Below, one piece after another: positions 1,921-33,815 of a stretch of DNA of 38,159 nt. This DNA is from Alphaproteobacteria bacterium (GTDB lineage: Bacteria; Pseudomonadota; Alphaproteobacteria; ATCC43930; CGMCC-115725), in contig JAFASL010000782.1 in assembly GCA_019244535.1 (NCBI GenBank), forward strand, positions 1-38,159, in the 5' to 3' direction. Within the stretch, counting starts at the first letter, position 1; each line of letters begins with the position of its first letter. Under the pieces are notes generated by a model. The model searched no databases. It was given only the letters and a program-made list of their open reading frames with translations, and was not told where the DNA came from. A program made the translations under genes and the position numbers.

Positions 1921-2352
1921 ATGTCCGATGATTTCAGCGACCGCACAAAACGGGGCGCCGAGCCCAACAGGACGAGCCGCGCGCGCACAGTGCGGGTTTT
2001 GCTTGCCGGAATGCCCAGGATGCTCGCCGATATTCTCACCGCCGTCATCGTTTCGCAGACCGATTTCGAGCTGGTCGGCGACGTTGTCGGCATCGCCGGG
2101 CTAGCGCTCGCTGCGAGCAAAGCCGCAGCCGACGTTTTGGTCCTGGGTCGCCGATTGCAGAGGCGGGATGCGCTGCGCGTCCTTTGCCGGTCTCCGCGGA
2201 TGAAGATCATCACGATCGCTCCCGACGGCCACAGCGGCGCTCTGTACGAATTGCGCCTTGACCGCGCCGTGCTCAACGAGGTTTCCCCAATCGCGCTGGT
2301 CGCTGCGATCCGGGGTTCCGCCCAGGAACCCGATCGAAGGCGGGGGCCGTGA
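1921..2352 (+). CDS. Stand-alone receiver-like (pseudo-receiver) protein, translationally coupled to the AAA+ ATPase gene
   Basis: ORF is open from 1861; ATG at 1921 (MSDDFSD...) lies upstream of the first beta-strand (VRVLLAG). It has an alternating beta/alpha pattern (VRVLLAG, DVLVLG, KIITIAP) but no acidic pocket, and Gly sits where the phospho-Asp is expected. The stop TGA (2350-2352) overlaps GTG 2349 of the next gene. The start is uncertain (1861 TTG or 1921 ATG). Confidence 0.55.
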   Translation: MSDDFSDRTKRGAEPNRTSRARTVRVLLAGMPRMLADILTAVIVSQTDFELVGDVVGIAGLALAASKAAADVLVLGRRLQRRDALRVLCRSPRMKIITIAPDGHSGALYELRLDRAVLNEVSPIALVAAIRGSAQEPDRRRGP

Positions 2353-4514
2353 GCGCGCGCCGACAAAAACGCGTCACAACCTCCGGCAATCGCCGCAGCG
2401 CGACACGTCCGGCCGAGCCGGCAATGCTGGCCGCAATTCGCTGCGTCGATGAACTGCTGGCAAACGGCGTCGCGAGATGGCACGCCGTGCAAGGCGCCGA
2501 CCCGTTTCGCGGGCTGCATATCGGCCCTGAGGAAGTCGAGCGCTGGCTTGGCGCGGCGGATGCCGAGCCCGAGCCGATTTCCGCCGGGCTGACCAGCGTG
2601 ATGACCCGTGCCGTGAACGCAGCGTTGGACGACTCGGTATTCCGCTGGCTGGTCGGCGAGTTTGCATTGACCGCCTTCCAGGCGGCTGCGCTGGTCATCG
2701 CCTTTGCACCCGAGCTCGATCTTCGCTACGAGCGGCTGTTCGCCTATCTGCAGGATGATGTCGGCAAGCGGCGGCCGACCGTCGACCTGCTGCTGCGACT
2801 ACTGTGCCCCGACCGCACCCGCCGGGCTCTATGGCTCGGCGAATTCGGCTCCGGCGCGCCACTCGTCCAAAACCGGCTGATCACGGTAGCCCGCAACCCG
2901 GAGGCACCACTCCTTTCCGCGCCGGTACAGCTCGACTACCAGATCGCCGCGGTCTTGTTGCGTCACGGCCAGCTCGACAGCCGGCTGGTCGGGTTCTGCA
3001 AAGTCTCGGCTGCAACCAGAGACTTCGGCGGACTGCCGATCGCGCCGGAATGGCACAAGGCATTGCCGGCATTGTTGGCGTCCGCACGCGAGGAGCGGCG
3101 ACCGTTGCGCTTCTACCTGCAGGGGCCCTCCGGCGTCGGCAAAGGACACCTCGCCGACGCGATCGCCGCCCGCCTCGGCGCGCGGCTCGTCACCGCCGAT
3201 CTTGGGGCGTTGCGACAGCTGAGCGACATCGGCGAGCGGCTGCGGCTGACCTTCCGCGAGGTGTGGCTGAAGGGAGGCGTCCTTTATTTGACGGGTGTTG
3301 ACGGGCTGCGCGAGGACGGGGCGCAGTTCTCGGCCTTGCTGGGCCTAATATCGGCTGATCCCGGGGTGACCGTGCTGTCTGGGCACAGCACCTGGAGTGC
3401 CGCCGAACTCGACGCTACCGGAATCATCCCGCTCGCCTTCGACGTGACCGCGCCGGGTGTCCAGCGGGCGAGCTGGACCCGGGCCTTGGACAATGCGGGC
3501 ATCACGGTTCCCGAAGACGAGCTGGCGGTGCTCGCAGAACGCTTTCGCCTCACTCCAGCCCAGGCTGGCGAGGCTGCGCTCGCGGCGGTCAACCGTGCCC
3601 GCTGGCGCGAGGCCGTTTCGGGCGGCGGCGACACTCGGCCGACCCTTGAAGACTTCTTCCTCGCCGCCCGCCTGCAGGGTGGTCAGGAACTGGCGACTTT
3701 GGCCCGCCGGATCGAGCCAAAGCGCAGCTGGTCGGACATCGTCCTGCCGCAGGAATCGTTCGATCAGTTGCGCGAGATCTGCGCGCGCATCGCCAGTCAT
3801 CGCCAGGTTCTGCGCGACTGGGGCTTTGCCCGCCGGCTCAGTCTCGGCAAGGGGGTCACCGCGCTCTTTTCCGGCCCTTCCGGCACCGGCAAAACATTGG
3901 CAGCTGAGATCATTGCGTACGAGCTCGGTCTTTTTCTTTACAAGATCGACCTGGCCACCGTCGTCAGTAAATATATCGGCGAGACCGAAAAGAACCTCGA
4001 TCGGCTGTTCACCGCCGCGCAGGACGCCAATTGCGTTCTGTTTTTCGACGAGGCGGACGCGCTGTTCGGCAAGCGGTCCGAAGTACGCGATTCTCACGAC
4101 CGCTACGCCAATCTCGAAATCTCCTACCTGCTGCAGAAGATGGAGGAATTCGAGGGGCTGGCGATCCTCGCAACCAATCTGCGCCAGAACCTCGACGACG
4201 CCTTCACCCGCCGTCTGGCCTTCACGGTCCACTTCCCGTTTCCGGACGAGCACGAGCGGCACCGCATCTGGTCGGAGATCTGGCCCAGCGAACTGCCGGT
4301 GGCCCCCGATGTCGACGCCCTCGGACTCGCGCGCGAGCTCAAGATGAGCGGCGGCAACATCAAGAATACCGCGCTTGCGGCGGCCTATTACGCTGCCGCC
4401 GATGGCGGAGTAGTGACGCGGGCGCACCTGCTGCGCGCGGCGCGGCGCGAGTTCCAGAAAATGGGCAAGGTGCCGAGCACCCTCGAGACCGCCATCATCG
4501 AGGGAAATTCGTGA
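2349..4514 (+). CDS. Tandem AAA+ ATPase, eCIS Afp15/Pvc15-like
   Basis: The C-terminal AAA module has Walker A GPSGTGKTLAAE, Walker B VLFFDEADALF, and ATNLRQNLDDAFTRRLAFTVHFPFPDEHERHRIW. An upstream degenerate module reads LQGPSGVGKGHLADAIA. The start is either GTG 2349 (GTGA overlap) or ATG 2424. Position and architecture match the ATPase found in eCIS loci. Confidence 0.9.
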   Translation: MSARRQKRVTTSGNRRSATRPAEPAMLAAIRCVDELLANGVARWHAVQGADPFRGLHIGPEEVERWLGAADAEPEPISAGLTSVMTRAVNAALDDSVFRWLVGEFALTAFQAAALVIAFAPELDLRYERLFAYLQDDVGKRRPTVDLLLRLLCPDRTRRALWLGEFGSGAPLVQNRLITVARNPEAPLLSAPVQLDYQIAAVLLRHGQLDSRLVGFCKVSAATRDFGGLPIAPEWHKALPALLASAREERRPLRFYLQGPSGVGKGHLADAIAARLGARLVTADLGALRQLSDIGERLRLTFREVWLKGGVLYLTGVDGLREDGAQFSALLGLISADPGVTVLSGHSTWSAAELDATGIIPLAFDVTAPGVQRASWTRALDNAGITVPEDELAVLAERFRLTPAQAGEAALAAVNRARWREAVSGGGDTRPTLEDFFLAARLQGGQELATLARRIEPKRSWSDIVLPQESFDQLREICARIASHRQVLRDWGFARRLSLGKGVTALFSGPSGTGKTLAAEIIAYELGLFLYKIDLATVVSKYIGETEKNLDRLFTAAQDANCVLFFDEADALFGKRSEVRDSHDRYANLEISYLLQKMEEFEGLAILATNLRQNLDDAFTRRLAFTVHFPFPDEHERHRIWSEIWPSELPVAPDVDALGLARELKMSGGNIKNTALAAAYYAAADGGVVTRAHLLRAARREFQKMGKVPSTLETAIIEGNS

Positions 4515-32993: not shown

Positions 32994-33005
32994 AGGAGAG
33001 GCCAC

Positions 33006-33815
33006 ATGTCTGGCACGTCCGATCCGACCTGCGTCCTGTACGGGACCGCGTTGGAGCGCGTTCGTTATTTTCCGCGCCAGCTCATCACCGCCGACGACAT
33101 GCGGGCCGAGCAGGAATTCGTTCTCAACAAGATGCGCCGCCACAATCGCTTTCTGCACGGCTGGGGCGTCGTTTGCGGCTGTCAGGTCGTGCCGATGCCG
33201 ACCGACGGACATCCTTGGCAGGTGCAGGTCTGCCCGGGCTACGCAGTGGCACCGCAGGGCGATGAGATCGTGATCACGCAGTGCGTGACTTTTGATCTGC
33301 AGTCCGGCATGCAGCCCTGCGATCCGTGCACCGTCACTTGGCCGTGCCCGCCGCAGCCAGCACTCACTTCGGAGAACCGGCGGCAGACCGTCTATCTTGC
33401 GGTGCGGTACGTCGAATGCGCGACGCGGCCGGTGCGGGTCCACCCCGCCGGCTGCGGATGCGACGAGCTCGATTGCGAATATTCGCGGATCCGCGAGGCA
33501 TTCGAGCTGAAAGTGCTGTGGTCGCTGCCGGCTTCGCACAGTGATGCAAAACAGGCCGACACTGCCTGGGCGGCTGCAGCACGAACAGGTATCAAGGAAG
33601 CCAGCGACTTCGGGTTTCCGGTGCCGCCTTGCCCGGCCTGCACCGACGACCCCTGGGTGGTTCTGGCGTCGGTGAACCTTCCGGCCGTCCTGCAGCAGTC
33701 CACCCAATTCGCAGTGCAGCAGCCGCCCCTGACCGCGCAGCAGATTTTCTACCTCGACCGCCGCGTGCTGTACAGCACGACGGCGCTGCAGGTAATGATC
33801 GAAGCCGGACTGTAG
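33006..33815 (+). CDS. Fibre-family paralog C (N-domain only, Cys-rich)
   Basis: ATG 33006 has GAGGAGAG upstream. The shared N-domain reads RVRYFPRQLITADDMRAEQEF...GWGVVCGCQV...VQVCPGYAVAPQGDEI...VYLAVRYVECATRPV...RIREAFELKV. Confidence 0.75.
   Translation: MSGTSDPTCVLYGTALERVRYFPRQLITADDMRAEQEFVLNKMRRHNRFLHGWGVVCGCQVVPMPTDGHPWQVQVCPGYAVAPQGDEIVITQCVTFDLQSGMQPCDPCTVTWPCPPQPALTSENRRQTVYLAVRYVECATRPVRVHPAGCGCDELDCEYSRIREAFELKVLWSLPASHSDAKQADTAWAAAARTGIKEASDFGFPVPPCPACTDDPWVVLASVNLPAVLQQSTQFAVQQPPLTAQQIFYLDRRVLYSTTALQVMIEAGL

Follow-up and report, generated by a model that had tools for sequence, protein, structure and literature searches.

Contig JAFASL010000782.1 of assembly GCA_019244535.1 (38,159 bp; "the window" denotes this whole stretch, at its full length) carries a single plus-strand gene array at ~1.9 to 33.8 kb with all core modules of a contractile injection system (CIS) of the Serratia antifeeding prophage (Afp) and Photorhabdus virulence cassette (PVC) type, as recognized from the open reading frame (ORF) listing and from profile searches against Pfam, NCBIfam, and PHROG. 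The extracellular CIS (eCIS) superfamily has thousands of cataloged loci; work is under way to turn eCIS particles into programmable protein-delivery devices, and most of what exists in nature is still uncharacterized. The array likely encodes a free-standing, phage-tail-derived member of this superfamily, with two giant candidate cargoes.

From the AAA+ ATPase gene onward, the array holds two giant cargo candidates (A and B), a cap, a sheath, an inner tube, a chaperone pair, a tape-measure candidate (p250), a tube initiator, a hub, a spike, a PAAR tip, a gp25 wedge, two J-like baseplate proteins, a gpI-like protein with NHL repeats, and three Cis13-like proteins (Table 1), in reading frames backed by a GC content at third codon positions (GC3) of 0.74 to 0.87. 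The original prediction, made from the letters alone, had named these core modules in one plus-strand array, and profile searches bear it out; for the hub, the GPD and VgrG matches were sub-threshold and came from four libraries, while the other members of the baseplate core scored above the Pfam cut-off. The searches also place the genes in the eCIS (Afp/PVC-like) superfamily. The sheath matches Phage_sheath_1 and not TssB or TssC, the tube matches gp19 and not Hcp, and the hallmarks singled out earlier, namely the DUF4255 cap (76 bits against a cut-off of 27), the WHD-AAA ATPase, and a DUF4157 protein (A; 102.5 bits against 22), are all present above cut-off.

Capsid, portal, terminase, integrase, and lysis families were matched nowhere on the 38,159-bp contig, and no ORF on it matched a family specific to type VI secretion systems (T6SS), those of the membrane complex (TssJLM-like) included, as had been anticipated; no tRNA or Rfam element was found. 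Since head, integrase, lysis, and T6SS genes are missing and the flanks hold housekeeping genes, the array represents a stand-alone tail-like system and not a prophage or a T6SS.

Within the structural core, the best PDB match of the sheath was the Streptomyces coelicolor CIS sheath (8BKY; E, 1.6e-87), matches to CIS sheaths in the PDB ranged from there to 1e-20, and an exact-sequence look-up of the sheath returned no record. The larger J-like protein matched the S. coelicolor baseplate (9GTP, 4e-39), AlgoCIS (7AEB, 3e-16), and All3317 of the thylakoid-anchored CIS (tCIS; 7e-16). The C terminus of the cap is a CarboxypepD_reg (Ig-like) domain that replaces the C-terminal domain of Afp16/Pvc16, an architecture also found in the related loci L007, L010, and L012 (Microcoleus); the domain was not detected in the cap homologue of Sideroxyarcus, and a PDB sequence search with the cap gave nothing useful. 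No product of the cluster has a transmembrane (TM) segment at a Kyte-Doolittle 19-residue mean of ≥1.6, weak amphipathic stretches aside.

Stop and start codons overlap at 2349 (GTGA) and at 4514, 9202, and 21431 (TGATG type), as listed in the original prediction. At 17400, the fifth junction listed, the tape-measure candidate gene overlaps the DUF6760 ORF (17207-17407) by 8 nt; ORF 17110-17403 is spurious, the real coding there lying in the DUF6760 frame. The stoichiometric co-translation read from these overlaps asks too much of what is ordinary translational coupling.

Table 1. Positions of annotated features in the 38,159-bp window
Feature	Position	Strand	Evidence
LuxR/GerE-type response regulator; candidate cluster regulator	892..1647	+	GerE 1e-19, weak Response_reg
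143-aa ORF (orf143), GTGA-coupled to ATPase gene	1921..2352	+	GC3 0.76, gene-like
AAA+ ATPase, Afp15/Pvc15/Alg15 type (CDC48-like)	2349..4514	+	PF22977 WHD 2e-28, PF00004 AAA 2e-33, two P-loop regions
Giant cargo candidate A, 1562 aa	4514..9202	+	eCIS_core/DUF4157 1e-29 at residues 70-147
Deaminase-fold domain of A, residues 457-582; H488, E490, C523, C527	5882..6259	+	Alignment, AlphaFold2, Foldseek
Giant cargo candidate B, 1424 aa, without DUF4157	9202..13476	+	No Pfam match; 1-nt overlap with A
Deaminase-fold domain of B, residues ~790-935; H845, E847, C880, C884	11569..12006	+	Aligned with domain A and 48 homologues
Cap/tail terminator, DUF4255 (Pvc16_N) with C-terminal CarboxypepD_reg (Ig-like)	13527..14438	+	PF14065 4e-21, PF13620 4.5e-11
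Contractile sheath, 652 aa	14456..16414	+	PF04984 Phage_sheath_1, PF17482 Phage_sheath_1C
Inner tube, gp19-like	16432..16863	+	PF06841 3e-47
Tail assembly chaperone, gpG-like, 128 aa, C-terminal CPxC zinc-ribbon-like motif	16890..17276	+	phrog_508 7e-5
DUF6760 frame, -1 relative to chaperone; proposed gpGT-like extension	17207..17407	+	PF20546 3e-12, weak Phage_P2_GpE
Programmed -1 frameshift signal	17240..17291	+	Slippery run, spacer, stem-loop
Tape-measure candidate p250, 250 aa, Arg/Pro-rich	17400..18152	+	Slot after G/GT-like chaperones, before tube initiator
Tube initiator with LysM, Afp7/Pvc7-like	18156..18842	+	PF19266 CIS_tube 1e-33, LysM 4e-6
Baseplate hub, gpD/VgrG-N-like	18857..20056	+	Phage_GPD 9e-5, VgrG_rel 5e-11, phrog_52 8e-19, PDB VgrG 7e-4
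Spike OB-fold protein, gpV-like	20075..20722	+	PF04717 3e-22
PAAR spike tip	20734..21012	+	PF05488 5e-22
gp25/gpW wedge	21027..21431	+	PF04965 6e-27
Large J-like baseplate protein, Afp11/Cis11-like, 1224 aa	21431..25105	+	Baseplate_J 6e-14
Second J-like baseplate protein, Afp12/Cis12-like, 684 aa	25107..27161	+	Baseplate_J 4e-12; PDB 9GTP 9e-45
Cis13-like fiber/anchor protein 1, 463 aa	27148..28539	+	NCBIfam CIS13_fam N-terminal match 1.4e-9
gpI-like baseplate protein with N-terminal NHL repeats, frameshifted	28540..30646	+	NHL 2e-13, Tail_P2_I 5e-11
Cis13-like fiber/anchor protein 2, 489 aa	30656..32125	+	CIS13_fam 1.7e-16
Family-2 glycosyltransferase (GT2), accessory, between fiber genes	32052..32993	+	PF00535 2e-22
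Cis13-like fiber/anchor protein 3, 269 aa	33006..33815	+	CIS13_fam 8e-20
449-aa protein, DxD-like motif; possible glycosyltransferase-like accessory, cluster membership uncertain	33858..35207	+	Faint matches
FkbM methyltransferase	35169..36239	-	Convergent minus-strand gene
Hydantoinase B	36022..37671	-	Convergent minus-strand gene
Hydantoinase A C terminus	37668..38117	-	Convergent minus-strand gene

Cargo candidates and their deaminase-fold domain

The ATPase, whose architecture and position are the same in the related loci L011, L012 (Microcoleus), and L013 (Ralstonia), is a probable cargo loader or unfoldase. Between it and the cap lie A and B, the second of which (9202-13476) drew no comment in the original prediction. 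A consists of a ~69-aa N-terminal region, DUF4157, a coiled coil, the deaminase-fold domain, a Pro/Ala/Thr/Lys-rich linker, and a ~730-aa C-terminal region. It aligns with B at 27% identity over 418 aa (BLASTP; E, 1e-21), the two having in common a ~300-aa module of a coiled coil and the globular (deaminase-fold) domain. Residues 88-319 of B (9463-10158) share homology with the part of the Ralstonia cargo that follows DUF4157 (36%; E, 6e-25). B thus resembles a paralogue in the cargo family that lacks DUF4157, which, at the sequence level, suggests gene fission or duplication within that family.

All structural proteins of the cluster are acidic, and its only strongly basic products are A (net charge, +30), B (+36), and p250 (+26), a charge that may be a signature of lumen contents. 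The same three are the fastest-diverging products between related loci; between the window and L007, the structural proteins are 61-88% identical (sheath, 80%), A is 47% and p250 36% identical, and B shares one module only. PDB sequence searches with A and B gave nothing useful. Neither has a TM or hydrophobic segment, and TM-anchor and pore-forming readings of them were rejected on that ground. An A-over-T skew of up to +0.40 within 4000-13500 is confined to the two giant genes and follows from the hydrophobic-poor, Ala/Lys/Glu/Thr/Pro-rich composition of the products, which are probably disordered in large part.

The ATPase-cap interval is the variable part of the lineage, with different DUF4157 proteins in each lineage. 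It holds two giant proteins in the window and L007-type loci, one 1078-aa DUF4157 protein without the deaminase module in Ralstonia, two DUF4157 proteins in Microcoleus (one with OmpA, one with a weak PIN match), and one 936-aa protein in Sideroxyarcus, with DUF4157 always at about residues 70-155. By analogy, this placement matches the layout and ATPase-dependent loading of the proven AlgoCIS cargoes Cgo1 and Cgo2, which an AAA+ ATPase loads via their N-terminal region, and A and B are probable toxin cargoes. AlgoCIS (Algoriphagus machipongonensis, class Ib) resembles the window in having two adjacent cargo genes, a disordered ~70-aa N-terminal region, DUF4157, and a variable C-terminal region in the cargo, an AAA+ ATPase (needed there for loading), a tape measure (the ruler there, a candidate in the window), and a large Cis11. 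It differs in gene order and in its distant sheath (7ADZ; E, 4e-31); in the window, DUF4157 is missing from B, the cargoes are longer and have deaminase-fold domains, and no cap adaptor has a gene of its own.

In an alignment of 50 sequences (both domains of the window and 48 homologues), H-A-E and two Cys are invariant, and these residues include the catalytic Glu and the full set of three Zn ligands. In most of the sequences the two Cys are spaced as C-x3-C, occasionally as C-x2-C or C-x5-C, and not as the usual PCxxC. An AlphaFold2 model of the domain from the single sequence was unusable (predicted local distance difference test score [pLDDT], 46), and the model built with the homologue alignment (pLDDT, 92.6) was used instead; in it, the motif residues fall at helix starts, at the deaminase H/C-x-E and C-x(n)-C positions. 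Searched against the PDB with Foldseek, the model, which has the beta-alpha-beta deaminase fold, gave deaminases as 49 of the 50 top matches (probability, 0.9-1.0; TM-score, ~0.4-0.5), led by AID/APOBEC, dCMP, RibD, and CDD1 deaminases (probability, ~1.0; best E, 1.5e-3), and all 12 PDB matches of the domain profile were deaminases, at marginal E values (0.006-2). Only 97 clusters (50% identity) among 1.84 billion proteins came up when the globular part was searched exhaustively with HMMER. DUF4157 is present on 35 of 62 full-length homologues, four of which reach XOO_2897-deam, and one the BURPS668_1122 deaminase family, at E ≤ 1e-3.

A place in the C-terminal-hairpin division was considered and dropped, as the nearest relatives by sequence (XOO_2897) and by fold (AID/APOBEC) are both of the Helix-4 division, in which they were grouped together by Iyer et al. 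(2011); the domain itself is left without a division. PVC-pathway deaminase toxins carry an N-terminal metallopeptidase and come without immunity genes (Iyer et al. 2011), and EAT11, a DUF4157-deaminase of Amycolatopsis, is toxic when expressed (Geller et al. 2021; PMC8213781). With these the window proteins have in common an N-terminal PVC-metallopeptidase/DUF4157 (in A), a long linker, a deaminase-superfamily domain, and the lack of an immunity gene; they differ in falling below all Pfam deaminase thresholds, in C-x3-C, in the presence of two domains per locus, and in a long C-terminal continuation. By alignment and predicted fold, the domain appears to be a divergent, uncurated member of this known toxin class. 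More tentatively, and with the odds somewhat against it, the module could represent an undescribed clade of injection-system-delivered polynucleotide deaminases, set mid-protein in giant basic, largely disordered carriers that are loaded in pairs.

Chaperone frameshift cassette and tape-measure slot

A chaperone-like pair had been proposed after the tube gene. The first member is a tail assembly chaperone, 60-77% identical across six loci, while the second ORF reads as its -1 frameshift extension with DUF6760, an overlap arrangement that is the same in all related loci examined. The slippery site, C CCG GGG / G GGG GAA at 17240-17249, is followed by a 4-nt spacer and a 16-bp stem-loop (17254-17291), and a conserved -1-frame peptide, GG(I/V)(L/V)GYPL (GGILGYPL in the window), begins exactly at the G-run. 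The first six loci had the G-run in the register NNG GGG GNN, with the zero-frame stop 1-14 codons further on. Across 81 loci, 75 of them from metagenomes, the run is in register in 80, and the lone exception carries G GGA AAA, a canonical heptamer, in that position. Upstream of the run, the -1 frame contains no ATG, GTG, or TTG in 28 of the 81 loci and no ATG in 60; the ATG at 17207 arises incidentally from GAA-TGC, two conserved zero-frame codons of the CPxC motif.

The hairpin forms from GGCUACCCCCUC and GAGGAGGUAGCC, 4-5 nt downstream of the G-run, and in the window has 16 bp, -36.9 kcal/mol, and a z score of -4.8. Across 40 distinct sequences, 95% of stem cells can pair, against 30-62% in slid controls, and RNAalifold returned the same helix as the sole structure in the alignment. 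Covariation in the stem is scarce (one compensatory C-G to U-A pair in three sequences), and its chief support is synonymous-site conservation, such as the rare Val codon GUA in 36 of the 40. Judged by these sequence signals, the chaperone and DUF6760 frames are a -1 frameshift cassette of the lambda G/GT or P2 E/E+E' type, with a predicted fusion product. As in lambda and P2, two ORFs that overlap separate the tube gene from the tape-measure slot, the second is read in the -1 frame, and a slippery run lies near the end of the first. The window differs in belonging to a non-phage injection system and in its slippery site, which is a run of G (G GGG GGA/GAA) with a strong hairpin conserved downstream. 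A search of a literature library found no mention of DUF6760 or of a frameshift in CIS chaperones.

Directly downstream, p250 had been put forward as a tape-measure candidate, an assignment made by position. In phages, G/GT-type chaperone pairs reportedly lie between the tube and tape-measure genes, which supports it. Its homologues in five loci keep a length of ~210-270 aa and the C-terminal motif LTDHV..AIDRR..A.RER.G, and little else.

Fiber-like proteins, neighboring genes, and relatives

An N-terminal domain of ~150 aa is common to all three Cis13-like paralogues, and by sequence it fits the eBAP3/4 baseplate-anchor class described for eCIS fibers. A profile of the three N termini gave a weak match (E, 0.008) to the N terminus of Anabaena tCIS All3314 (7B5H), and the C-terminal parts of the three gave no matches. 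The proteins pair one-to-one with Ralstonia orthologues (42, 39, and 55% identity for proteins 1, 2, and 3) and so represent conserved distinct components, not interchangeable receptor cassettes.

The GT2 gene (32052-32993), absent from the original prediction, has no counterpart at the corresponding position in the Ralstonia cluster; the Microcoleus cluster is also flanked by a GT2 (L012, 303-1496). The 449-aa gene has a GC3 of 0.66, against ~0.78 for the cluster, and its product matches only faintly (DUF6734, 0.19; Npun_R2821 family, 0.049). The third fiber gene is thus surrounded by GT2, the 449-aa DxD-motif gene, and the convergent FkbM methyltransferase gene (32052-36239); glycan modification of the particle or its fibers by this group is only a guess, and the genes may be unrelated neighbors.

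The upstream flank holds an AcrB C-terminal fragment and the LuxR/GerE response regulator, which by adjacency may regulate the cluster; GerE-domain regulators have been reported as associated with eCIS loci (PMC8213781). Between the regulator and the ATPase, orf143 had no match in Pfam, NCBIfam, or PHROG and no homologue in the related loci compared. A by-eye likeness of its product to a receiver domain was dropped, since it had no Pfam match and no similarity to the receiver domain of the adjacent regulator. Downstream, the lower-GC 449-aa gene is followed by the convergent minus-strand genes for FkbM methyltransferase, hydantoinase B, and hydantoinase A. Plus-strand ORF 35914-37806 is spurious, the true coding there being on the minus strand; spurious long ORFs of this kind (17110-17403, 35914-37806) are typical of high-GC DNA. 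The best named relatives of the hydantoinase B, at ~90% identity, are Stellaceae metagenome-assembled genomes (Alphaproteobacteria), and the host is probably a Stellaceae-like alphaproteobacterium.

Sheath homologues (893 at E ≤ 1e-10, up to 94% identical) are almost all metagenomic, from soil and elsewhere. The same gene order recurs in loci with 56-88% sheath identity, among them metagenome loci, Sideroxyarcus, Microcoleus, and the Ralstonia solanacearum Rs5 megaplasmid (NZ_CP051176.1, ~559,800-584,900). The Rs5 cluster has an orthologue for every gene from the ATPase to the third Cis13-like protein, with gene-for-gene synteny (sheath, 56%; tube, 71% identical); unlike the window, it has a single 1078-aa DUF4157 cargo, no deaminase module, no GT2 between the fiber genes, and a gpI/NHL gene that is intact. 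In the plasmid collection, this region carries no annotation. Compared with Afp and PVC, the window has the same sheath, gp19 tube, LysM initiator, VgrG/PAAR, gp25, J-like wedges, ATPase, and DUF4255 components, along with fiber and tape-measure candidates. In those systems, the sheath has three paralogues, the genes for ATPase, cap, and toxins come last, at the 3' end, and the cargo lacks DUF4157, and their sheath similarity to the window is limited to the C-terminal ~200 aa (E, ~1e-40). The window cluster belongs to a widespread environmental lineage with an ATPase-first order, one without a solved structure or functional characterization.

Competing readings and significance

If the array encodes a particle of the eCIS kind, its baseplate would comprise the hub, gpV spike, PAAR, gp25, two J-like wedges, and gpI/NHL, with the three Cis13-like proteins at the periphery. 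The chaperone and its -1 frameshift product (chaperone-DUF6760) would hold the basic p250, while tube and sheath would polymerize on the LysM initiator until the DUF4255 cap ended growth. The ATPase would load A and B into the tube lumen via their N-terminal regions. After release, target binding by the peripheral fibers would be followed by sheath contraction expelling spike and cargo, and the deaminase-fold domains would then act, most probably on nucleic-acid cytosines.

Whether such a particle is released was weighed against a CIS acting in or on the producing cell, either cytoplasmic as in Streptomyces or membrane/thylakoid-anchored and T6SS-like, which we consider unlikely. By sequence, the nearest solved structures to the sheath and J-like proteins are from the cytoplasmic S. 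coelicolor CIS (8BKY/9GTP), next comes the membrane-bound, T6SS-like haloarchaeal CIS 9EZM, and only then PVC, Afp, tCIS, and AlgoCIS; in addition, there is no lysis cassette on the contig, and the fiber-like N-terminal domain resembles that of tCIS All3314. The S. coelicolor CIS (class IId) has the same general core set, but it is cytoplasmic, has no tail-fiber gene and no typical tape measure, and needs a membrane adaptor (CisA/Sco4242-like) (PMC10066040). The window, in contrast, has three Cis13-like proteins, gpI/NHL, a gene in the tape-measure slot, no predicted TM helix, and a diderm alphaproteobacterial host. A released, extracellular particle is favored by the Cis13-like and tape-measure-slot genes and the absence of a TM helix, by which the cluster differs from that of S. 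coelicolor. Somewhat less probable still is that A and B are tape-measure-related or scaffold-type lumen proteins, like Tme of Streptomyces davawensis minus its nuclease, with HAE/C-x3-C serving a structural or Zn-binding role. Like Tme, a giant CIS-associated DUF4157 protein with an enzymatic nucleic-acid-targeting domain, they have the longest ORFs and consist for the most part of low-complexity or disordered sequence with coiled coils, and one of them carries DUF4157; moreover, the domain is internal and not C-terminal, and there is no immunity gene. Tme, however, occupies the tape-measure slot and has predicted TM helices and a C-terminal EndA-like nuclease, whereas A and B lie between ATPase and cap, are free of TM helices, and have their deaminase-fold domain inside the chain. 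The slot itself is held by a separate gene with its G/GT chaperone pair, the catalytic Glu and Zn ligands are invariant in 50 diverged homologues, the lack of an immunity gene is characteristic of PVC-linked deaminase toxins, and EAT11 offers a DUF4157-deaminase precedent for toxicity.

A prophage tail module, or an R-type tailocin killing by membrane puncture alone, is very improbable. It would account for the P2-like order of the sheath-tube-chaperone (frameshift)-tape measure and V-W-J-I modules and for the distant phage-sheath similarity, but identity to phage sheaths does not exceed ~35%, over roughly half of the protein, the 38-kb contig has housekeeping flanks and none of the head, integrase, or lysis genes, and DUF4255 cap, WHD-AAA ATPase, and DUF4157 are eCIS markers (PMC8213781). 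A T6SS can be set aside almost entirely: gp25, a VgrG-like hub, PAAR, and contractile-sheath logic are common to both, yet sheath and tube match the phage-type families, a DUF4255 cap is present, and no TssJLM, TssK, TssA, or ClpV family was matched on the contig.

Several observations weigh against the favored reading of a released particle with deaminase cargoes, in addition to the cytoplasmic and membrane-bound origin of its closest solved sheath and baseplate homologues. The contig carries no lysis or release genes. Domain A scores 15.3 bits against XOO_2897-deam, below the gathering threshold of 27, and domain B matches no curated deaminase family; both domains sit mid-protein, with hundreds of residues after them, and not at the C terminus. 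No family or PDB match to p250 was found in the Pfam, NCBIfam, PHROG, and PDB searches, and, at the eCIS ruler coefficient of ~0.22-0.23 nm per residue, p250 would speculatively set a particle length of ~55 nm, which is unusually short. The CIS13_fam matches (1.4e-9 to 8e-20) lie far below the curated 370-bit cut-off, and the Cis13-like proteins may be structural baseplate parts and not receptor-binding fibers. Finally, the system had been called apparently complete, which holds for the presence of all core modules but not for the gpI/NHL gene. Its gpI-like and NHL character was rightly recognized, and the NHL and Tail_P2_I matches fall in ORF 28772-30646, but the gene starts at ~28540, with the first ~35 codons (ATG 28540/28543) in one frame and the remainder in another; the frames meet at a run of C near 28645. 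In Ralstonia (L013) and Bryobacteraceae (L002), the orthologues are continuous in one frame, and the break in the window reflects either a fault in the assembly or a real mutation that inactivates the gene.

The findings do not overturn current understanding. The cluster adds to the well-known eCIS superfamily, and its added value lies in a rare deaminase-fold cargo pair, a conserved frameshift cassette, and a culturable Ralstonia orthologue. The cassette corrects the annotation of DUF6760 genes and ties CIS assembly to the phage G/GT mechanism. The lineage is abundant in soil metagenomes (>500 related chaperone genes, 893 sheath homologues), and the orthologous cluster in the culturable plant pathogen R. 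solanacearum opens it to experiment. The deaminase-fold domain of the cargoes may be a new family of nucleic-acid-editing toxins; if this holds, its substrate range could differ from those of known toxin deaminases and could serve base editing.

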